Shown piece after piece: positions 39,496-64,000 of a stretch of 64,000 nt of DNA. Every line of letters begins with the position of its first letter. The first letter of the stretch is position 1. The notes below the pieces were generated by a model. It had not been told where the DNA came from and made no database searches. It was given only the letters and a program-made list of their open reading frames with translations. Origin of the DNA: Escherichia coli O127:H6 str. E2348/69 (lineage in GTDB: Bacteria; Pseudomonadota; Gammaproteobacteria; Enterobacterales; Enterobacteriaceae). The DNA is taken from NCBI RefSeq assembly GCF_000026545.1, contig NC_011601.1. One strand, written 5' to 3'. A program made the translations under genes and the position numbers.

Positions 39496-40533
39496 ATGTT
39501 TTCCGCATTGCGCCACCGTACCGCTGCCCTGGCGCTCGGCGTATGCTTTATTCTCCCCGTACACGCCTCGTCACCTAAACCTGGCGATTTTGCTAATACC
39601 CAGGCACGACATATTGCTACTTTCTTTCCGGGACGCATGACCGGAACTCCTGCAGAAATGTTATCTGCCGATTATATTCGCCAACAGTTTCAGCAAATGG
39701 GTTATCGCAGTGATATTCGGACATTTAATAGTCGGTATATTTATACCGCCCGCGATAATCGCAAGAGCTGGCATAACGTGACGGGAAGTACGGTGATTGC
39801 CGCTCATGAAGGCAAAGCGCCGCAGCAGATCATCATTATGGCGCATCTGGATACTTACGCCCCGCTGAGCGATGCTGACGCCGATGCCAATCTCGGCGGG
39901 CTAACGTTACAAGGAATGGATGATAACGCCGCAGGTTTAGGTGTCATGCTGGAACTGGCTGAACGCCTGAAAAATACGCCTACCGAGTATGGTATTCGAT
40001 TTGTGGCGACCAGCGGCGAAGAGGAAGGAAAATTAGGCGCTGAGAATTTACTCAAGCGGATGAGTGACACCGAAAAGAAAAATACGCTGCTGGTGATTAA
40101 TCTCGATAACTTAATTGTTGGCGATAAGCTGTATTTCAACAGTGGCGTAAAAACACCTGAAGCAGTAAGGAAATTAACGCGCGACCGGGCGCTGGCAATT
40201 GCCCGCAGCCATGGAATTGCCGCCACCACAAATCCAGGTTTGAATAAAAACTATCCGAAAGGCACCGGGTGTTGTAATGACGCAGAAATATTCGACAAAG
40301 CCGGTATTGCTGTACTTTCGGTGGAAGCGACTAACTGGAATCTTGGCAATAAGGATGGTTATCAGCAACGCGCAAAAACAGCCGCATTCCCTGCAGGAAA
40401 TAGCTGGCATGACGTAAGACTGGATAATCAACAGCATATTGATAAGGCACTTCCTGGAAGAATAGAACGCCGCTGCCGTGATGTTATGCGGATAATGCTA
40501 CCGCTGGTGAAGGAGCTGGCGAAGGCATCTTAA
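39496..40533 (+). CDS. iap: Alkaline phosphatase isozyme conversion aminopeptidase Iap
   Basis: 345 aa, signal peptide and M28-family peptidase motifs. Confidence 0.9.
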   Translation: MFSALRHRTAALALGVCFILPVHASSPKPGDFANTQARHIATFFPGRMTGTPAEMLSADYIRQQFQQMGYRSDIRTFNSRYIYTARDNRKSWHNVTGSTVIAAHEGKAPQQIIIMAHLDTYAPLSDADADANLGGLTLQGMDDNAAGLGVMLELAERLKNTPTEYGIRFVATSGEEEGKLGAENLLKRMSDTEKKNTLLVINLDNLIVGDKLYFNSGVKTPEAVRKLTRDRALAIARSHGIAATTNPGLNKNYPKGTGCCNDAEIFDKAGIAVLSVEATNWNLGNKDGYQQRAKTAAFPAGNSWHDVRLDNQQHIDKALPGRIERRCRDVMRIMLPLVKELAKAS

Positions 40534-40632
40534 TGGGTTTGAAATGATTACTCCCTTGCCTGCAGGAAATCAATGCCACCAGAAACAGAGTATAAAAAAG
40601 GGTGCAGGAGACCAAACCATCACAATTCAGTA

Positions 40633-40651
40633 CGCGGGGTTTTACCCCGCG
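40633..40651 (-). terminator. Stem-loop (cgcgggg-tttta-ccccgcg) immediately 3' of the hok pseudogene
   Basis: 7-bp perfect stem read from the sequence, located just after the hok stop codon on the minus strand. Confidence 0.4.
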
Positions 40652-40657
40652 TGGTGG

Positions 40658-40809
40658 CTACTTCTTCGATTCGTAAGCGAGAACTGCCTTAAACTCCATA
40701 CCACGTTCTCTGATACTCAACTCACACAACGAGTCGCCTACCATCAACGTGAATCCCAGTACTGTACAACACAGTACGATGATTGCCACAAGGGCATATT
40801 TTGTCAGCA
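40658..40809 (-). pseudogene. hok: hok-family (HokE-like) type I toxin gene, inactivated by a 1-nt deletion
   Basis: Minus-strand translation [23 protein letters not shown] then a stop, followed out of frame by [26 protein letters not shown], which matches the Hok/Gef family (Hok[15 protein letters not shown]...LVGDSLCEF...[12 protein letters not shown], from memory). Restoring one G in 'atg(g)tagg' gives an intact 50-aa ORF. Confidence 0.7.
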
Positions 40810-40828
40810 TGTCTGTGTAAGTTCACAG

Positions 40829-41900
40829 AGATATTGCAATTGCCTCCGGATAAGTAAGGGGAGATTGCACTATGCAAATGCAGCATCTGATGGTTGGCTA
40901 TCCTAAGTACTACCAAACGGCCGATTATGCGTTGAGGCTTTCAGTGATGGCTGATATAGCAACAATGAGAATGAAGGCTCTGCACTTCTGGGATAAACAC
41001 GGTATTTCTGCAGCTTCTGAAGCCTTTGGCGTGTCCTGCCGCACGCTTTACTGGTGGCGTCAGTTACTGAACAAGGAAGGACCTGAGGGGCTAATCCCGC
41101 ACAGTAAGGCACCTCTGGTGCGACGAAAAAAACACTGGCATCCCGATGTGCTGAAAGAGATTCGACGCCTCAGGACAGAGCTGCCGAACCTCGGTAAAGA
41201 GCAGATTTTTGTTCGCCTGAAGCCCTGGTGCGAACAGCGCTATCTGGCCTGTCCGAGTGTTTCCACCATCGGCAGAATGATCGCTGCCGCACATGATAAA
41301 ATGCGGATGATACCTGTGCGTCTGGGATCGCGGGGGAAGGCACTGCTTGTCAAAAAGCGGTCTGCCAAACCCCGCAGGCCAAAGCACTACCGCCCGGTAA
41401 AGACAGGTGAGCTCATTGGGATGGACGCCATTGAGCTCAGAATGGGCGAACTGCGTCGCTATGTCATCACCATGATCGACGAATGCAGCAATTACGCGCT
41501 GGCGCTGGCTGTGCCGTCACTCAACAGTGATATCGTCAATCACTTCTTCAGCCGCGCAGCCCGGTTGTTCCCGGTCGGTATCAGCCAGATAATCACAGAT
41601 AACGGAAAAGAGTTCCTGGGAAACTTCGACAAAACGCTGCAGGAAGCCGCTATCAAACACCTCTGGACCTATCCCTACACGCCAAAAATGAACGCTATCT
41701 GTGAACGTTTTAACCGGACGTTAAGAGAGCAGTTTATTGAATTTAATGAGATTTTACTCTTTGAAGATCTGGCGCTATTTAACCAGAAGCTGGCGGAATA
41801 TCTGGTGCTGTATAACAGCAAAAGACCCCACAAGGCGCTCGCACTAATGACGCCCGTGGAATATATTTTAAAAGAGAATAAAAATTGCAATATGTGGTGG
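40829..41900 (+). mobile_element. Approximate extent of an IS481-family-like insertion sequence; boundaries tentative
   Basis: Single DDE (rve) transposase ORF. Candidate terminal inverted repeats 'atattgcaatt' at the left (about 40829) and its reverse complement within 'aaaaattgcaatatg' at about 41886-41900. No clean target-site duplication was found. Confidence 0.4.
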
Positions 41901-42146
41901 ACCCATACAATGTCTTGCCTCCTTGCAAAGAAGAGACTAACATCCGAATTGCTTAGGTTCGAACGTAGGCCTCAGGTTGATAGAAATATCGCCTGGGGCT
42001 TTTGTCCATCTGGAACCTCGCGAATGCTTAACGCCAGACAGCCTCAAGCACCCAACGCCATTCTATACCTGTTAATTTTCCCTGCGATGTTCACCTTTAA
42101 ATGCCGGAATGCTGCTCGCAAAATAAAAACGCCCCATCATTTCTGA
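40872..42146 (+). CDS. DDE-type (rve/integrase core) transposase with N-terminal HTH, IS481-family-like
   Basis: HTH (ISAASEAFGVSCRTLYWWRQ), DDE residues in GMDAIE / ITDNGKEF / ERFNRTLRE, and C-terminal KRPHKALALMTPVEY. The last ~80 codons of the 424-aa ORF may be read-through into flanking DNA. Confidence 0.7.
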   Translation: MQMQHLMVGYPKYYQTADYALRLSVMADIATMRMKALHFWDKHGISAASEAFGVSCRTLYWWRQLLNKEGPEGLIPHSKAPLVRRKKHWHPDVLKEIRRLRTELPNLGKEQIFVRLKPWCEQRYLACPSVSTIGRMIAAAHDKMRMIPVRLGSRGKALLVKKRSAKPRRPKHYRPVKTGELIGMDAIELRMGELRRYVITMIDECSNYALALAVPSLNSDIVNHFFSRAARLFPVGISQIITDNGKEFLGNFDKTLQEAAIKHLWTYPYTPKMNAICERFNRTLREQFIEFNEILLFEDLALFNQKLAEYLVLYNSKRPHKALALMTPVEYILKENKNCNMWWTHTMSCLLAKKRLTSELLRFERRPQVDRNIAWGFCPSGTSRMLNARQPQAPNAILYLLIFPAMFTFKCRNAARKIKTPHHF

Positions 42147-42174
42147 CAGAGGCGTTTAATTTATCCGGCAATAT

Positions 42175-42909
42175 TTACCCTTCGTGTAATCCACATTCCC
42201 TTTTTAAGCCAAAGAAACGCGTTTCTTCTTCCGCCATGCCGGGTTCCCATTTACGGGTTGTATGGGTATCGCCCACCGATAAATATCCTTCATCCCATAA
42301 TGGGTGATATTTCAGGCCATGTTTTTGCAGGTACTGATAAATAGTTCGGTTATCCCAGTCGATAATCGGCAGCACTTTAAATACGCCACGCTGAATTGCC
42401 AGCACCGGTAAATTGGCGCGACTGCCGGATTGTTCACGGCGCAGGCCAGCAAACCAGGTTTGCGCATTCAGTTCTTTCAGCGCCCGGTTCATCGGTTCGA
42501 CTTTGTTGATGTCATTGTACTTTTCAATGCCTTCAACGCCCTGCTCCCACAGTTTGCCGTAGCGTGCTTCCTGCCAGGCGGCGCTTTCGGTAGCACGATA
42601 CACTTTCAGGTTGAGCTTGAGTTTGTCCGTTAACTCGTCAATAAAGCGGTAGGTTTCCGGGAACAGATAGCCGGTATCGGTGAGGATCACTGGAATATCC
42701 GGGCGAATCTGATTCACCAGATGCAGACTCACCGCCGCCTGAATGCCAAAGCTGGAAGAAAGTACATATTCACCGGGCAGATTATCCAGCGCCCAGGCTA
42801 CGCGGCCTTCAGCGTCCAGTTTTTCCAGTTGGGCGTTAGTTTCCGCCAGCGCCAGAATCCGGTCTACCTTTGGCAGTTCGTTCAGGGCGTTTAGATCGAG
42901 TTTGGACAT
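42175..42909 (-). CDS. cysH: Phosphoadenosine phosphosulfate reductase (244 aa)
   Basis: Conserved [21 protein letters not shown] start; the longer six-frame ORF runs through a REP element and was rejected. Confidence 0.95.
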
Positions 42910-54083: not shown

Positions 54084-54869
54084 TTAGCGCACTAAATAAC
54101 CGCCATCAACCACTAATAAATGTCCGTTGACATAATTCGATGCCGGACTTGCGAGGAATACGGCTGCACCCATTAAATCCTGAGTATCACCCCAACGGTT
54201 TGCCGGAATATGATCAAGAACACGCTGGTTAGTTTCTGGATTACTACGGGTCGCCAGCGTAATATCGGTTGCATAATAACCAGGAGCAATACCATTCACC
54301 TGAATATTATATTGGCCTAATTCATCGCAATAGGCTTTGGTGAATCCGGCAAGAGCATGTTTAGTGGCAGAATAAGCAGGTGACCATTGACCACCTAAGT
54401 AAGAGAACAATGAACAGATATTAATGATTTTACCGCTTTTCTGCGGGATCATAATTTTTGCCGCTTCGTAGCTTAACTCGAATGCGGCGGTCAGGTTCAC
54501 GTCAATCATCGGGTCCCAGTCGGCACGACCAAAGTCCAGCACCTTATTCAGCTTACAAATACCGGCATTGTTAACCAGAATATCTACGGTACCGAAGCGC
54601 TCACAGCAGGCAGCGATAATCTTCTGCGGCGCGCCTTCTGCGGTGATATCCACCTGCATAAAATCAACTTCGACACCCTGTTTTTCAATCATTTCCTTTG
54701 TTTCGCCGTTATCTTTGACGAAACTAGGAATAAAGACATTTGCGCCAGCTTTGGCCAACGCCATGGCAAATGCCTGGCCTAAACCGCTATTCCCGCCAGT
54801 AACAATTGCTGTTTTACCTTTCAGGGAGAAAAAATCCATTGAGAACGCATTGAGAGATTCGATTGACAT
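54084..54869 (-). CDS. ygcW: Short-chain dehydrogenase/reductase YgcW (261 aa)
   Basis: TGGNSGLG Rossmann motif; start at MSIES with a GGAG ribosome-binding site. The longer six-frame ORF runs through a terminator hairpin and was rejected. Confidence 0.9.
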   Translation of the reverse strand: MSIESLNAFSMDFFSLKGKTAIVTGGNSGLGQAFAMALAKAGANVFIPSFVKDNGETKEMIEKQGVEVDFMQVDITAEGAPQKIIAACCERFGTVDILVNNAGICKLNKVLDFGRADWDPMIDVNLTAAFELSYEAAKIMIPQKSGKIINICSLFSYLGGQWSPAYSATKHALAGFTKAYCDELGQYNIQVNGIAPGYYATDITLATRSNPETNQRVLDHIPANRWGDTQDLMGAAVFLASPASNYVNGHLLVVDGGYLVR

Positions 54870-54893
54870 AGTTAGCTCCAATTTCCGTAAGGC

Positions 54894-54940
54894 AAAAAAA
54901 AAGAAAGGTAACTTCCCCCGCGAGAGGGAAGTTACCTTTC
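54894..54940 (-). terminator. Strong intrinsic-terminator-like hairpin plus U9 tract in the ygcW leader (minus strand)
   Basis: 15-bp perfect stem gaaaggtaacttccc / gggaagttacctttc with 8-nt loop. The plus strand has A9 just 5' of the stem, so a minus-strand transcript has U9 immediately 3'. It lies about 25 nt upstream of the ygcW start codon. Confidence 0.6.
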
Positions 54941-54993
54941 TCATTATCTCTGGTAACTGGAGATAATTTTTAGCATAAGGACATAACTGCTAA

Positions 54994-56490: not shown

Positions 56491-57969
56491 ATGTCGAAAA
56501 AATACATCATAGGGATTGATGGCGGAAGTCAGAGCACAAAAGTGGTGATGTACGATCTGGAAGGTAATGTGGTTTGCGAAGGCAAAGGCTTATTGCAGCC
56601 GATGCACACGCCAGATGCCGATACCGCAGAACATCCTGACGACGATTTATGGGCATCACTATGTTTTGCCAGTCACGATTTGATGAGCCAGTTTGCCGGA
56701 AATAAAGAAGATATTGTCGGCATTGGCCTGGGCTCAATCCGTTGCTGCCGTGCGTTATTGAAAGCCGATGGTACGCCAGCCGCGCCGTTGATTAGCTGGC
56801 AGGATGCACGCGTTACACGCCCTTACGAACACACTAATCCTGACGTGGCCTATGTCACCTCTTTTTCGGGTTATCTGACACATCGCTTAACCGGCGAGTT
56901 TAAAGACAATATCGCCAACTATTTTGGTCAGTGGCCGGTGGATTATAAGAGCTGGGCATGGAGCGAAAATGCCGCGGTAATGGAAAAGTTTAATATCCCC
57001 CGCCAGATGCTTTTTGACGTGCAAATGCCAGGCACTGTTCTTGGGCATATCACACCACAAGCTGCGCTGGCGACACATTTCCCGGCTGGGCTGCCGGTTG
57101 TTTGTACCACCAGTGATAAACCGGTAGAAGCTCTGGGAGCCGGGTTACTGGATGATGAAACGGCGGTAATTTCTCTTGGCACCTACATCGCGTTGATGAT
57201 GAACGGCAAAGCACTGCCGAAAGATCCGGTCGCGTACTGGCCGATTATGTCTTCTATTCCGCAAACATTGCTGTATGAAGGTTACGGTATTCGCAAAGGC
57301 ATGTGGACGGTGAGCTGGCTGCGCGACATGTTAGGCGAGTCGTTAATTCAGGATGCCAAAGCACAGGATCTTTCACCGGAAGATTTGCTCAACAAAAAAG
57401 CGTCTTGCGTGCCACCTGGTTGTAATGGGCTGATGACGGTGCTGGACTGGCTGACCAATCCGTGGGAACCGTACAAACGCGGAATTATGATCGGCTTTGA
57501 TTCCAGCATGGATTACGCATGGATATATCGTTCGATACTGGAAAGCGTGGCGCTGACGCTGAAGAACAATTACGACAATATGTGTAATGAAATGAATCAC
57601 TTTGCAAAGCATGTGATCATTACTGGCGGCGGTTCGAACAGCGATCTGTTTATGCAGATTTTTGCCGACGTGTTCAACCTTCCGGCACGCCGTAACGCCA
57701 TTAATGGTTGTGCAAGTCTGGGGGCAGCGATCAATACGGCGGTAGGTCTGGGGCTATACCCGGATTACGCAACGGCTGTCGACAAAATGGTTCGCGTGAA
57801 AGATATCTTTATGCCTGTTGAGAGCAACGCCAAACGCTACGACGCGATGAATAAAGGCATTTTCAAAGACCTAACCAAACACACTGATGTGATCCTGAAA
57901 AAATCGTATGAAGTGATGCATGGGGAATTGGGGAATGCGGATTCGATCCAGAGCTGGTCGAATGCGTAA
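56491..57969 (+). CDS. ygcE: FGGY-family carbohydrate kinase YgcE
   Basis: 492 aa, FGGY N- and C-domains. Confidence 0.9.
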   Translation: MSKKYIIGIDGGSQSTKVVMYDLEGNVVCEGKGLLQPMHTPDADTAEHPDDDLWASLCFASHDLMSQFAGNKEDIVGIGLGSIRCCRALLKADGTPAAPLISWQDARVTRPYEHTNPDVAYVTSFSGYLTHRLTGEFKDNIANYFGQWPVDYKSWAWSENAAVMEKFNIPRQMLFDVQMPGTVLGHITPQAALATHFPAGLPVVCTTSDKPVEALGAGLLDDETAVISLGTYIALMMNGKALPKDPVAYWPIMSSIPQTLLYEGYGIRKGMWTVSWLRDMLGESLIQDAKAQDLSPEDLLNKKASCVPPGCNGLMTVLDWLTNPWEPYKRGIMIGFDSSMDYAWIYRSILESVALTLKNNYDNMCNEMNHFAKHVIITGGGSNSDLFMQIFADVFNLPARRNAINGCASLGAAINTAVGLGLYPDYATAVDKMVRVKDIFMPVESNAKRYDAMNKGIFKDLTKHTDVILKKSYEVMHGELGNADSIQSWSNA

Positions 57970-58088
57970 GTGAGATAAACAGTGCCGGGTAGATGATTAA
58001 TCCCGGCATATTCACGTTTCCACCACAAAATACCGGGTAACCACTGCTGAATATTGTTCTCTCCTGAGTAGCGTTTATGCTTTAATTG

Positions 58089-58102
58089 CTAAACCGATTT
58101 AA
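58089..58102. promoter_or_regulatory. Candidate ScrR (LacI-family) operator upstream of scrK
   Basis: ctaaaccgatttaa matches the perfect palindromes upstream of scrY (ctaaaccggtttag) at 12 of 14 positions. Confidence 0.35.
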
Positions 58103-58133
58103 TTAGTTTAGCAATTAGTATATTGGAGCCTTT

Positions 58134-59054
58134 ATGAGCGCAAGAGTATGGGTACTCGGTGATGCGGTTGTTGATTTATTACCCGAAAGCCAGGGGAGAC
58201 TACTACAGTGTCCTGGCGGGGCGCCTGCTAATGTTGCAGTCGGTATCGCAAGGCTGGGGGGGAAAAGTGCCTTTATTGGCAAAGTTGGCGATGATCCTTT
58301 CGGTCGCTTTATGTATCAGACACTGAGTACAGAAAATGTTGATACACGTTATATGTCTCTTGATCCTCAACAACGCACCTCAATTGTGGCTGTAGGACTT
58401 GATGAGCAAGGAGAAAGAAACTTTACCTTTATGGTACGCCCAAGTGCCGATCTTTTTTTACAACCTGATGACCTTCCTACATTTGGGCCGGGTGAATGGC
58501 TCCATCTTTGTTCCATTGCGCTCAGTGCAGAACCTTCCCGAAGTACCGCATTTCTGGCTATGGAGAAAATACGTCAGGCTGGCGGAAACATCAGTTTTGA
58601 TCCCAATATCCGCAGCGATCTCTGGCAGAGTGAAGCGCTATTAAGAAAATACCTTGATCGCGCGCTTTCGCTGGCGAATATCGCTAAATTGTCCGAAGAA
58701 GAGTTGCTATTCATCAGTGGCGAAAGCCAGGTTCAGCAAGGCGCATATTCATTAGTACAACGTTATTCGTTGACTTTATTGCTTATCACACAAGGAAAAA
58801 ATGGCGTACTTGTGTATTTTCAGGGGCAGTTTATCCACTATCCCGCCAAACCTGTTTCTGTCGTCGATACGACCGGGGCAGGAGATGCTTTTGTCGCTGG
58901 ATTACTTGCAGGTCTGGCTGATTCTGGAATACCAACAAATACCAGACAGCTTGAACGAATCATTGCACAAGCTCAGATTTGTGGTGCTCTGGCGACCACG
59001 GCTAAAGGCGCGATGACCGCCTTACCCCGACAACACGATCTCCCTTCACAATAG
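58134..59054 (+). CDS. scrK: Fructokinase (PfkB family) ScrK
   Basis: 306 aa; VLGDAVVDLLPE...LLQCPGGAPANVAVG...DTTGAGDAFVAGLLAGL is highly similar to enterobacterial ScrK. Confidence 0.85.
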   Translation: MSARVWVLGDAVVDLLPESQGRLLQCPGGAPANVAVGIARLGGKSAFIGKVGDDPFGRFMYQTLSTENVDTRYMSLDPQQRTSIVAVGLDEQGERNFTFMVRPSADLFLQPDDLPTFGPGEWLHLCSIALSAEPSRSTAFLAMEKIRQAGGNISFDPNIRSDLWQSEALLRKYLDRALSLANIAKLSEEELLFISGESQVQQGAYSLVQRYSLTLLLITQGKNGVLVYFQGQFIHYPAKPVSVVDTTGAGDAFVAGLLAGLADSGIPTNTRQLERIIAQAQICGALATTAKGAMTALPRQHDLPSQ

Positions 59055-59085
59055 TGATCCTGCTGTTGTATCTGTAACCCGATTT

Positions 59086-59101
59086 GTCGTGCCTGTCACA
59101 T
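59086..59101. promoter_or_regulatory. Candidate CRP site upstream of scrY
   Basis: TGTCGtgcctgTCACA has one perfect half-site and one imperfect half-site with correct spacing. Confidence 0.3.
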
Positions 59102-59104
59102 TTA

Positions 59105-59118
59105 CTAAATCGGTTTAG
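59105..59118. promoter_or_regulatory. Candidate ScrR operator (near-perfect palindrome) upstream of scrY
   Basis: ctaaatcggtttag, a 14-bp palindrome with one mismatch. Confidence 0.4.
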
Positions 59119-59163
59119 CGAAAATAATTGCTCTGGCTAAAAAGTCAGCTTTATTATCAACAC

Positions 59164-59177
59164 CTAAACCGGTTTAG
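59164..59177. promoter_or_regulatory. Candidate ScrR operator (perfect 14-bp palindrome) upstream of scrY
   Basis: ctaaaccggtttag is perfectly self-complementary and lies about 45 bp upstream of the scrY start. Confidence 0.45.
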
Positions 59178-59197
59178 CATTTTAGCAATTTTTATAA

Positions 59198-60739
<1,542 letters not shown>

Positions 60740-60747
60740 TACCAGAC

Positions 60748-60770
60748 AGCCTCACGGATGTGAGGCTTTT
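60748..60770 (+). terminator. Intercistronic hairpin plus T-tract between scrY and scrA (possible partial terminator / attenuator)
   Basis: agcctcac-ggat-gtgaggct followed by ttt. Confidence 0.4.
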
Positions 60771-60799
60771 ACTGAAATAACAATGAATTAGAGGGTTAT

Positions 60800-62170
60800 A
60801 TGGATTTCGATAAAATCGCCCAATCGTTGCTTCCTTTATTAGGTGGTAAGGAGAACATCGCCAGTGCAGCACATTGCGCCACTCGCCTACGGCTGGTACT
60901 GGTTGACGACACACTTGCCGATCAACATGCCATTGGCCAGATTGATGGAGTGAAAGGTTGTTTTCGTAATTCAGGGCAAATGCAAATCATCTTTGGCACC
61001 GGCGTGGTTAATAAAGTCTATGCTGCCTTTATTCAGGTTGCAGGTATTAGCGAATCCAGTAAAGCAGATACCGCTCGACTCGCCGCTCAAAAACTCAATC
61101 CTTTTCAGCGAATAGCACGGCTACTTTCTAATATTTTTGTCCCCATCATTCCAGCCATTGTTGCTTCTGGTTTATTAATGGGGCTCCTGGGAATGGTGAA
61201 AACATATGGCTGGGTGAATGCCGATAATGCGATTTATATCCTGCTGGATATGTGCAGTTCAGCCGCATTTATTATTCTCCCCATCCTTATTGGCTTTACT
61301 GCTGCTCGTGAATTTGGTGGAAATCCTTATCTTGGCGCGACATTAGGAGGGATTCTGACTCACCCGGCACTCACAAATGCCTGGGGCGTTGCTGCGGGAT
61401 TTCAGACAATGAACTTCTTCGGTTTTGAAATCGCCATGATTGGCTATCAGGGAACGGTTTTCCCCGTGCTTCTGGCAGTATGGTTTATGAGCATAGTGGA
61501 AAAACAGTTACGCAGGTTTATCCCTGATGCTCTGGATCTCATTCTGACGCCATTTCTGACTGTCGTCATTTCTGGCTTTATCGCTCTTTTGATTATTGGT
61601 CCGGCAGGACGAGCGTTAGGTGACGGTATCTCTTTCGTTCTCAGCACGCTGATTGCACACGCAGGCTGGTTAGCAGGGTTGTTATTCGGCGGGCTATATT
61701 CAGCGATTGTTATTACGGGTATTCATCATAGCTTCCACGCAATTGAAGCAGGACTTTTAGGTAACCCTGCAATCGGTGTTAATTTCCTGCTGCCTATTTG
61801 GGCAATGGCAAACGTTGCGCAAGGAGGTGCATGTCTGGCGGTATGGTTTAAAACCAAAGATACAAAAATTAAAGCAATCACCCTACCCTCGGCCTTTTCC
61901 GCAATGTTAGGGATTACTGAAGCCGCTATTTTTGGTATCAACCTTCGTTTTGTTAAACCTTTTATTGCGGCCTTAATTGGTGGCGCTGCCGGCGGTGCCT
62001 GGGTTGTCTCTGTTCACGTTTATATGACTGCCGTTGGTCTGACCGCAATACCCGGCATGGCAATCGTTCAGCCAACATCGTTGGTTAATTATATTATTGG
62101 AATGGTGATTGCTTTCGCTGTCGCTTTTAGCCTCTCTTTATTACTCAAATACAAAACGGACGAGGAGTAA
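60800..62170 (+). CDS. scrA: PTS sucrose-specific EIIBC component ScrA (456 aa)
   Basis: N-terminal EIIB cysteine motif (AAHCATRLR) followed by a glucose-family EIIC membrane domain. Confidence 0.9.
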   Translation: MDFDKIAQSLLPLLGGKENIASAAHCATRLRLVLVDDTLADQHAIGQIDGVKGCFRNSGQMQIIFGTGVVNKVYAAFIQVAGISESSKADTARLAAQKLNPFQRIARLLSNIFVPIIPAIVASGLLMGLLGMVKTYGWVNADNAIYILLDMCSSAAFIILPILIGFTAAREFGGNPYLGATLGGILTHPALTNAWGVAAGFQTMNFFGFEIAMIGYQGTVFPVLLAVWFMSIVEKQLRRFIPDALDLILTPFLTVVISGFIALLIIGPAGRALGDGISFVLSTLIAHAGWLAGLLFGGLYSAIVITGIHHSFHAIEAGLLGNPAIGVNFLLPIWAMANVAQGGACLAVWFKTKDTKIKAITLPSAFSAMLGITEAAIFGINLRFVKPFIAALIGGAAGGAWVVSVHVYMTAVGLTAIPGMAIVQPTSLVNYIIGMVIAFAVAFSLSLLLKYKTDEE

Positions 62171-63579
62171 TGTCGATGCCTTCACAAATGCCCGCGATTT
62201 TACAGGCAGTGATGAAAGGTCAGTCCAAAGCACTGGCAGATGCCCACTATCCTTGTTGGCATCTCGCTCCAGTCACCGGACTAATGAACGATCCAAATGG
62301 CTTTTGTTGGTCTGGAGGCCGCTATCATCTGTTTTATCAATGGAATCCACTGGCTTGTGATCATAAGTACAAATGTTGGGGGCACTGGAGTTCGACGGAT
62401 TTATTGCACTGGCAGCATGAACCATTAGCGCTAATGCCCGATAAAGAGTACGACCGTAATGGTTGTTACTCAGGAAGCGCGGTTAATAATCAGGGCGTTC
62501 TCACACTTTGCTATACCGGTAATGTTAAGTTTGATGATGGCAGCAGAACGGCATGGCAATGCCTGGCCACCGAAAATAACCAGGGCGGGTTTGATAAACT
62601 AGGCCCTGTCATACCGTTACCTGATGGTTACACCGGACATGTTCGTGATCCAAAAGTCTGGAAGCACAACAGCCAATGGTACATGGTGCTTGGCGCGCAA
62701 GATAAAGAGAAACGGGGGAAAGTGCTGCTGTATTCCTCTGTCGATCTCTATACCTGGTCTTTTCATGGAGAAATTGCTGGTAACGGTCTGAATGAAATAG
62801 ATAACGCAGGATACATGTGGGAATGTCCTGATCTTTTCGCCCTTGATGGTGAATACATTCTCCTCTGTTGCCCCCAGGGAATGGTGCGCGAACATGAGCG
62901 CTATCTGAATACTTATCCCTGCGCCTGGCTACATGGACAGTTTGATTACGAGACAGGCAAATTTACGCATGGCGCTTTCTCAGAGCTGGATGCGGGATTT
63001 GAATTCTATGCACCACAGACGATGGAAGCCCCGGACGGGCGACGATTGCTGGTCGGCTGGATGGGGGTTCCTGATGGCGAAGAGATGTTGCAGCCAACCA
63101 GAAAGCATCATTGGCAGCATCAAATGACCTGTTTTCGCGAACTCTCATTCCAGAAGGGAAAATTGTTTCAGATGCCAATCAGGGAACTCGCGCAACTGCG
63201 TGAAGCTGAACACTTCTGGCAAGGAAAAGCGGATCATGCGCCGCATGTCGAAATTGAACGCCTGGAAATGGACATCATTCCGTCGGGTGAGCTGTATCTG
63301 AATTTTGGCAATGCGCTGGCACTGCATCTTAATGACGATGGTATTCAACTACAGAGGAGAAGCCTTGCAGGGCAAGAGAAACTAACTCGTTACTGGCGAG
63401 GAAGCGTAACGTCACTGAAGATTCTCTGTGACAGTTCCAGCGTAGAGATATTCATCAATAATGGTGAAGGTGTAATGAGTAATCGTTATTTTCCCCATCA
63501 TCCAGCTTCGCTGATATTACAGGGTGAGTCTGACGTCACGTTACGCTACTGGTCGCTACGCGCCTGCATGGTAGAATGA
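62170..63579 (+). CDS. scrB: Sucrose-6-phosphate hydrolase (GH32) ScrB
   Basis: 469-aa ORF with GH32 motifs (NDPNG, RDPKV, EC); start overlaps the scrA stop. Confidence 0.9.
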
Positions 63580-63604
63580 GGGTTTTGAATTACGGATCCT
63601 CGTC

Positions 63605-64000
63605 GTGAGAAAAACCAAACGCGTTACTATTAAAGACATTGCTGAACTGGCGGGAGTGTCGAAAGCAACCGCCAGTCTGGTTCTCAATGGTCGTGGCAAA
63701 GAGTTACGTGTTGCGCAGGAAACGCGTGAGCGTGTGCTGAGTATTGCCCAACAGCAGCATTATCAGCCCAGCATTCATGCCCGCTCATTACGGGACAACC
63801 GCAGTCATACCATTGGTCTCGTCGTTCCTGAAATCACTAACTACGGATTTGCAGTATTTTCCCATGAACTGGAAACATTGTGTCGGGAAGCGGGCGTCCA
63901 GCTCCTCATATCCTGTACTGATGAAAATCCTTCACAGGAAACAATGGTGGTGAACAATATGATTGCCCGCCAGGTTGATGGGTTAATCGTCGCATCCAGT
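63605..64000 (+). CDS. scrR: LacI-family sucrose operon repressor ScrR, 5' part (continues beyond the window)
   Basis: GTG start; [29 protein letters not shown]... is a classic LacI-type HTH. Truncated by the window end. Confidence 0.8.

Follow-up and report, generated by a model that had tools for sequence, protein, structure and literature searches.

We analyzed a 64,000-nucleotide stretch of DNA from Escherichia coli O127:H6 str. E2348/69 (contig NC_011601.1; the whole stretch is referred to here as the window), at the right end of which genes for sucrose use (scr) follow the sugar kinase gene ygcE. Very likely, these genes constitute a chromosomal scr regulon dependent on the phosphotransferase system (PTS), arranged in the order scrK-scrYAB-scrR and filling the region between ygcE and queE in place of the CRISPR2.2/2.3 array (CRISPR, clustered and regularly interspaced short palindromic repeats). 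Five open reading frames (ORFs) of the same orientation, scrK, scrY, scrA, scrB, and scrR, lie downstream of ygcE, and the window ends within the last of them. For the locus beyond the window we used the E2348/69 record NZ_CP059840.2 (L001), which is 100% identical to the window over the 7 kb tested; a window coordinate equals the L001 coordinate + 47999, and positions past 64000 are given as window equivalents.

Junctions of the scr block and the array it replaces

The borders of the scr block were located by BLAST and alignment of the E2348/69 locus with a K-12-type O16:H48 genome. On the left, ygcE is 95 to 96% identical to its K-12 counterpart and homology extends as far as 57974, placing the junction at 57974/57975, 5 nt past the ygcE stop codon. 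On the right, homology comes back at the equivalent of 64695, 2 nt ahead of the stop codon of queE (junction at L001 16695/16696). A preliminary description of the window, made from its sequence, had placed the right boundary beyond the window, and it was indeed found there, at the equivalent of 64694 and adjoining queE. Between these two junctions, the scr block occupies the entire convergent ygcE-queE intergenic region of E2348/69.

In the K-12-type genome, the alignment confirmed that scr is absent from this site. The spacer between ygcE and queE measures 1,365 bp there and harbors the CRISPR2.2/2.3 array, with nine type I-E CRISPR repeat-like units, two of them degenerate and seven regular. 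The earlier account, in which queE comes after ygcE in K-12, therefore holds in that both genes flank the site, but they do not follow each other directly, being separated by this CRISPR-bearing spacer. The array ("iap repeats", E. coli type I-E), carried at this site by K-12 and the majority of other E. coli, lies in the same interval as scr, between the same two stop codons, and has no sequence relationship with the scr block. Neither the window nor the extended locus contains remnants of CRISPR repeats, whether 3 mismatches were tolerated or, in a second search, as many as 6. Judged from the alignment, scr took the place of the CRISPR array and not of a bare gap.

Identity and integrity of the five scr genes

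Gene identities were scored against the curated cut-offs of NCBIfam. ScrK matched the fructokinase equivalog NF006957 with 511 bits (cut-off, 450) over residues 3 to 303 of 306, ScrA matched TIGR01996 with 650 bits (cut-off, 559) over residues 3 to 448 of 456, and ScrB matched TIGR01322 with 548 bits (cut-off, 356). ScrR, taken at its full length of 335 residues from the E2348/69 record, reached 463 bits with the fructose/sucrose repressor model TIGR02417 (cut-off, 390). ScrY scores under the maltoporin cut-offs; its residues 93 to 505, corresponding to the barrel domain, are 77% identical (E = 2e-226) to the sucrose porin of crystal structure 1A0S, which we take to be ScrY of pUR400. The approximately 90 residues ahead of the crystallised domain include a signal-like N terminus and a heptad-like, A/E/Q-rich stretch. 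The 456 residues of ScrA are wholly accounted for by its IIB and IIC domains.

All five scr ORFs are full length, align end to end on their family models, and are free of RefSeq pseudogene flags, and no insertion sequence (IS) interrupts scrY at the E2348/69 locus. From the family-model scores and the match of ScrY to 1A0S, it follows that the reading scrK-scrY-scrA-scrB-scrR is correct and that the genes are intact. This is in agreement with the preliminary description, which had claimed a complete scr module: all five genes stand where it had placed them, four passing the NCBIfam cut-offs and the fifth matching the sucrose porin.

The product name of the first gene deserves a comment. The RefSeq annotation (PGAP) gives scrK the product name "aminoimidazole riboside kinase" in the majority of genomes; in one or more, the gene is entered as "cscK: fructokinase". 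Taken at its word, the first label would make the gene an aminoimidazole riboside kinase instead of a fructokinase dedicated to the sucrose pathway, and the Salmonella riboside kinase 1TYY is indeed a clear homologue (256 bits). We nevertheless find this highly improbable: ScrK passes the cut-off of the fructokinase equivalog, its nearest solved structures are fructokinases (5EY7, with 330 bits, ahead of 1TYY), and the gene is part of the scr cluster and is preceded by a candidate ScrR-type operator. The differing product names appear to reflect inconsistent annotation and no difference in biology.

Candidate operators and promoter

A motif search for the palindrome CTAAAYCGRTTTAR returned only three sites in the entire 64 kb, while 0.11 matches on both strands would be expected by chance. 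These sites are confined to the promoter regions upstream of scrK (one site) and of scrY (two sites). The scrK site lies inside a 17-nt inverted repeat at 58083-58117 (Table 1). The three palindromes likely represent operators of ScrR, a role with which their location agrees. A CRP-like site (CRP, cyclic AMP receptor protein) next to the predicted scrY promoter agrees with TGTGA-N6-TCACA at 8 of 10 positions. Expression of scrY of pUR400 depends on cAMP-CRP, and from the sequence of the E2348/69 site we only infer that CRP may act there too. The promoter and operator regions are conserved between scr of E2348/69 and other copies.

Table 1. Features of the scr locus of E2348/69 in window coordinates
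Feature	Position	Strand	Remarks
ygcE, FGGY-family sugar kinase, left-flank core gene	56491-57969	+	ORF, RefSeq annotation
scr-specific block	57975-64000, on to equivalent 64694 (694 nt past window end)	+	6,720 bp; BLAST, alignment
Left end piece	57975-58017 (43 bp)	+	Only at the ygcE-queE site; absent from plasmid/island copies
Candidate ScrR operator of scrK, CTAAACCGATTTAA	58089-58102		32 nt upstream of scrK start codon; motif search
scrK, fructokinase (PfkB family)	58134-59054	+	306 aa
CRP-like site, TGTCG-N6-TCACA	59085-59100		Adjoins predicted scrY -35 hexamer; read from sequence
Predicted sigma-70 promoter of scrYAB(R): TTTACT, 16 nt, AATAAT	59101-59128 (L001 11102-11129)	+	Consensus match only
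Candidate ScrR operator 1 of scrY, CTAAATCGGTTTAG	59105-59118		Between predicted -35 and -10 hexamers; motif search
Candidate ScrR operator 2 of scrY, CTAAACCGGTTTAG	59164-59177		Perfect 14-bp palindrome, just downstream of predicted promoter
scrY, sucrose-specific outer-membrane LamB-type porin with N-terminal extension	59222-60739	+	505 aa
scrA, sucrose PTS enzyme IIBC without IIA domain	60800-62170	+	456 aa
scrB, sucrose-6-phosphate hydrolase	62170-63579	+	469 aa; start overlaps scrA stop
scrR, LacI/GalR-type repressor	63605-64000	+	GTG start; first 132 of 335 codons, window end cuts the rest

Predicted pathway and published growth data

The pathway that we propose is based on family membership and on published work on the same locus. 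ScrY would pass sucrose across the outer membrane, and EIIBC-Scr (ScrA) would take it up and phosphorylate it to sucrose-6-phosphate. Because ScrA has no IIA domain, it would depend on an EIIA supplied in trans; in the pUR400 system this is EIIA-Glc (Crr), which may have the same role in E2348/69. ScrB would then convert sucrose-6-phosphate into glucose-6-phosphate and fructose, and ScrK would phosphorylate the fructose. ScrR would repress the scrK and scrY promoters via the 14-bp palindromes until an inducer relieves the repression.

Growth data are available for other strains. In B2 strains, the queE-adjacent scr is correlated with rapid growth on sucrose, the cloned scr locus is sufficient for sucrose growth in scr-negative E. 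coli, and deletion of scrR speeds up growth on sucrose (PMC11251922). Sucrose fermentation and growth, induced by sucrose or fructose, have thus been demonstrated for this locus in other strains and with the cloned genes (PMC11251922). By analogy, we infer that E2348/69 uses sucrose by means of scr. The locus would explain fast growth on sucrose, of which K-12 is not capable, in a subset of E. coli: part of phylogroup B2, and F, among them sequence types ST131 and ST1193 and this enteropathogenic strain.

Two observations weigh against a functional scr regulon that came to fill this site. The first is that scr-positive isolates include slow growers on sucrose and sucrose-negative ones (PMC11251922). 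The second is that no scr-type empty site, as it would be predicted from the end pieces of the block (43 bp and 81 bp), was found among 5,426 complete E. coli genomes with a synthetic query in which the ygcE end and a 46-bp left piece were joined to the right piece and queE.

The slow isolates and the sucrose-negative ones, in which an IS3 in scrY is on record (PMC11251922), raise the possibility that scr is present in E2348/69 but cryptic or non-functional, that is, silent, poorly expressed, or deprived of a partner, and would be a genomic relic. We regard this as quite unlikely, as the five ORFs are full length and without pseudogene flags, scrY is free of IS, and the promoter and operator regions are those conserved in other copies. 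Furthermore, 20 of 24 scr-positive isolates were sucrose-positive (PMC11251922).

Distribution of scr and alternative fillings of the site

In 986 of the 5,426 complete E. coli genomes (18%), scr adjoins ygcE at 99% identity or more, while in nearly all the others the match is confined to the ygcE part of the query. The preliminary description had regarded scr as missing at this position from K-12-like genomes, and this is what we found: about 82% of the complete genomes match only ygcE.

Because no scr-type empty site was found, a simple insertion of scr into a short spacer cannot be demonstrated. The search across both flanks turned up a collapsed spacer of the K-12 type, approximately 470 bp long and containing two CRISPR repeats and one spacer, in 330 genomes (strain 23AR0806 is an example). 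From its sequence, the collapsed spacer appears to have arisen from the K-12-type spacer by a deletion reaching from a CRISPR2.2 repeat to the last CRISPR2.3 repeat. These results indicate that the ygcE-queE site has alternative fillings, namely, a CRISPR array, either long or collapsed, or scr.

We also observed that the 3' end of queE (L001 16696-16945; equivalent 64695-64944) is only 88% identical to K-12, while the next 250 bp are 97.6% identical. This divergent queE end is also found, with 97% identity, in the genomes with a collapsed CRISPR spacer, and the divergence is therefore not specific to scr. It may represent an old recombination breakpoint. A second dip in identity to K-12 (89.6%) is located 750 to 1000 bp from the right junction, in the queE-ygcG intergenic region, where yqcG is annotated in K-12 and not in E2348/69.

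Composition, borders, and origin of the scr block

The GC content of the scr block is 46.8%, compared to 52.5% in the remaining window, and all other 6.7-kb stretches of the window have 49.4% or more. Likewise, the GC content at third codon positions (GC3) is 0.38 to 0.48 in the five scr genes and 0.55 to 0.61 in the adjacent genes yqcE, ygcE, and queE. The AT richness of the scr genes, previously judged by eye, is borne out by these values, and the atypical composition is consistent with horizontal acquisition, as had been suggested.

We then considered marks of mobility. No integrase, recombinase, or IS is annotated between ygcE and queE by RefSeq or among the ORFs, and no tRNA gene was found within 25 kb around the locus, in good agreement with the earlier remark that the left junction lacks an integrase, a tRNA, and an IS. 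The borders show neither a target-site duplication nor terminal inverted repeats, nor any direct repeat of 7 nt or more shared by the two, and an Rfam scan of the locus matched no family. We rejected a classical integrase-mediated genomic island on the lack of an integrase between ygcE and queE, of a tRNA within 25 kb, and of flanking direct repeats. A composite transposon or otherwise IS-bounded module was rejected as well, as there are no annotated IS and no inverted repeats at the borders. The 8-mer TAATCCCG occurs at 57998-58005 (L001 9999-10006), in the hairpin of the left end piece, and again at the equivalent of 64609-64616 (L001 16610-16617), across the scrR stop codon. We estimate the chance of such a pair at about 0.04, and it is out of register with the module boundary; it could be a microhomology but is probably a chance occurrence.

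A block devoid of mobility genes and target duplications could also be the ancestral content of the ygcE-queE gap, with scr having been lost from K-12-type strains and the CRISPR array having come later, the reverse of the direction suggested in the preliminary description. Indeed, for part of phylogroup B2, Stephens et al. describe the locus as "native" (PMC11251922). An ancestral scr is nevertheless extremely improbable, given the foreign composition of the genes, with their low GC3, and the fact that scr is found at the site in just 18% of E. coli genomes. Furthermore, in the majority of Escherichia and Salmonella genomes this interval holds CRISPR2 (PMC2886076), which makes the array the older state. 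We favor acquisition from outside: a block of foreign composition without mobility genes would most likely have come into an ancestral E. coli lineage a single time, to be spread or maintained afterwards through homologous recombination in the conserved flanks.

Plasmid and island copies lack the end pieces

The same scr module, with 99.0% identity, is present on 22 E. coli plasmids, of which we inspected one, the IncFIA/FIB/FIC plasmid NZ_CP023959.1, typed as conjugative IncF. In addition, strain MS 85-1 carries a chromosomal copy at a second site, in a resistance island-like neighborhood with ISCR2, IS1326, sul1, and hns. The plasmid and MS 85-1 copies share with E2348/69 only window positions 58018-64613; IS are found near these copies, none being located exactly at the module ends. 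It would seem that the module has also been picked up by IncF plasmids.

The two end pieces are specific to the ygcE-queE site. The left one contains a hairpin directly after the ygcE stop codon (stems 57982-57989 and 58002-58009; -16.7 kcal/mol, z = -2.5), and the right one, of 81 bp, contains a terminator-like hairpin with a T-run after scrR.

With regard to a donor species, we searched the 26-mer containing the scrK operator in 100,044 genomes, one per species, and matched a single contig of a metagenome-assembled genome. This lone match is a plasmid/island-type copy, as in MS 85-1. The scr genes of Enterobacter and Pantoea plasmids are 72 to 76% identical to the E. coli module at the DNA level.

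Comparison with described sucrose systems

The scr locus of E2348/69 is an ordinary accessory locus that has already been described. Earlier publications on the E. coli scr locus reportedly include that of Trevino-Quintanilla et al. from 2007 on enteropathogenic E. coli. In 2010, Touchon and Rocha pointed out scr at the CRISPR2 site of strain SMS-3-5 (PMC2886076), and a 2025 CRISPR survey of uropathogenic E. coli (UPEC) noted it there as well (PMC12736100). Stephens et al. (2024) described a 6.7-kb scr locus adjoining queE at the CRISPR2.2 site of B2 and F strains, with ends lacking IS or transposons (PMC11251922); for scr at this site, they cite Diez-Villasenor et al. (2010) as the source (PMC11251922). 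The genes, their order, the site, the 6.7-kb size, and the lack of flanking IS or transposons are the same in E2348/69, and nothing material differs. The scr locus of E2348/69 is therefore one instance of the chromosomal B2/F locus. The stretch replaced by scr was given as approximately 0.5 kb (PMC11251922), whereas here it measures 1,365 bp relative to the K-12-type spacer and approximately 0.47 kb relative to the collapsed allele. To the published work, our analysis adds the exact junctions, the population count of 18%, the three candidate operators, and the recognition that plasmid copies are this same module, shortened by 43 bp at one end and by 81 bp at the other.

The scr systems of the Salmonella plasmid pUR400 and of Klebsiella pneumoniae have the same five functions and gene order as scr of E2348/69. 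They also possess a LacI-type repressor and palindromic operators in the promoter regions of scrK and scrY, the E2348/69 palindromes being candidates. However, scr of E2348/69 belongs to a sequence lineage distinct from the pUR400/Klebsiella type, and it is chromosomal, at a fixed site, and not borne on a plasmid or conjugative transposon. A Citrobacter freundii-like scr is approximately 67% identical to E. coli scr (PMC11251922).

The csc regulon (cscB permease, cscK, cscA invertase, and cscR) likewise confers sucrose use, is variably present, and comprises a fructokinase and a LacI-type repressor. Unlike scr, it is independent of the PTS and works through a proton symporter together with an invertase in the cytoplasm. 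It lacks a porin, supports slow growth, and occupies a different chromosomal site. No csc-type genes were found at the scr locus of E2348/69.

Relation of scr to the loss of CRISPR-Cas

Between iap (39496-40533) and cysH (42175-42909), at 40534-42174, both the type I-E cas operon and the CRISPR2.1 array of K-12 are absent, and E2348/69 is therefore without both halves of the I-E system. This interval is annotated with a truncated integrase-core pseudogene (approximately 40872-41906), a hok/gef toxin gene (approximately 40658-40810), and nothing else. No type I-E repeat was found in the whole window. The scr locus can usefully serve to mark the B2 haplotype that is without CRISPR.

Among 237 uropathogenic strains, the ygcE-queE interval ("Region C") was filled by a repeat array in 46% and by sucrose genes in 47%, and the scr-bearing UPEC strains include some that still have type I-E cas genes (PMC12736100). 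The presence of scr in strains keeping the I-E cas genes argues against a strict link between scr gain and cas loss. The exchange of the array for scr, exact from one stop codon to the other, might be more than a neutral accident, but this seems to us very improbable. On that reading, the CRISPR2 spacer would be a preferred site of landing or recombination, or I-E loss and scr gain would be linked mechanistically or by selection, and the two end pieces, each with its hairpin, could be relics of an integration mechanism not yet recognized.

Other content of the window

Beside rpoS, at 26534-29355, RefSeq annotates a MarR regulator and the hydroxyarylic acid decarboxylase subunits B, C, and D. 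It also annotates an IS200C transposase and a HigB-type toxin with a helix-turn-helix antitoxin, for which the ranges 114-572 and 1244-1971 are listed. Finally, the ORF of ygcW (54084-54944, minus strand) encodes 286 residues from an upstream ATG, compared to 261 residues in RefSeq. A KduD-type model aligns with the ygcW product from residue 30 only; of the two starts, the shorter is the more probable.

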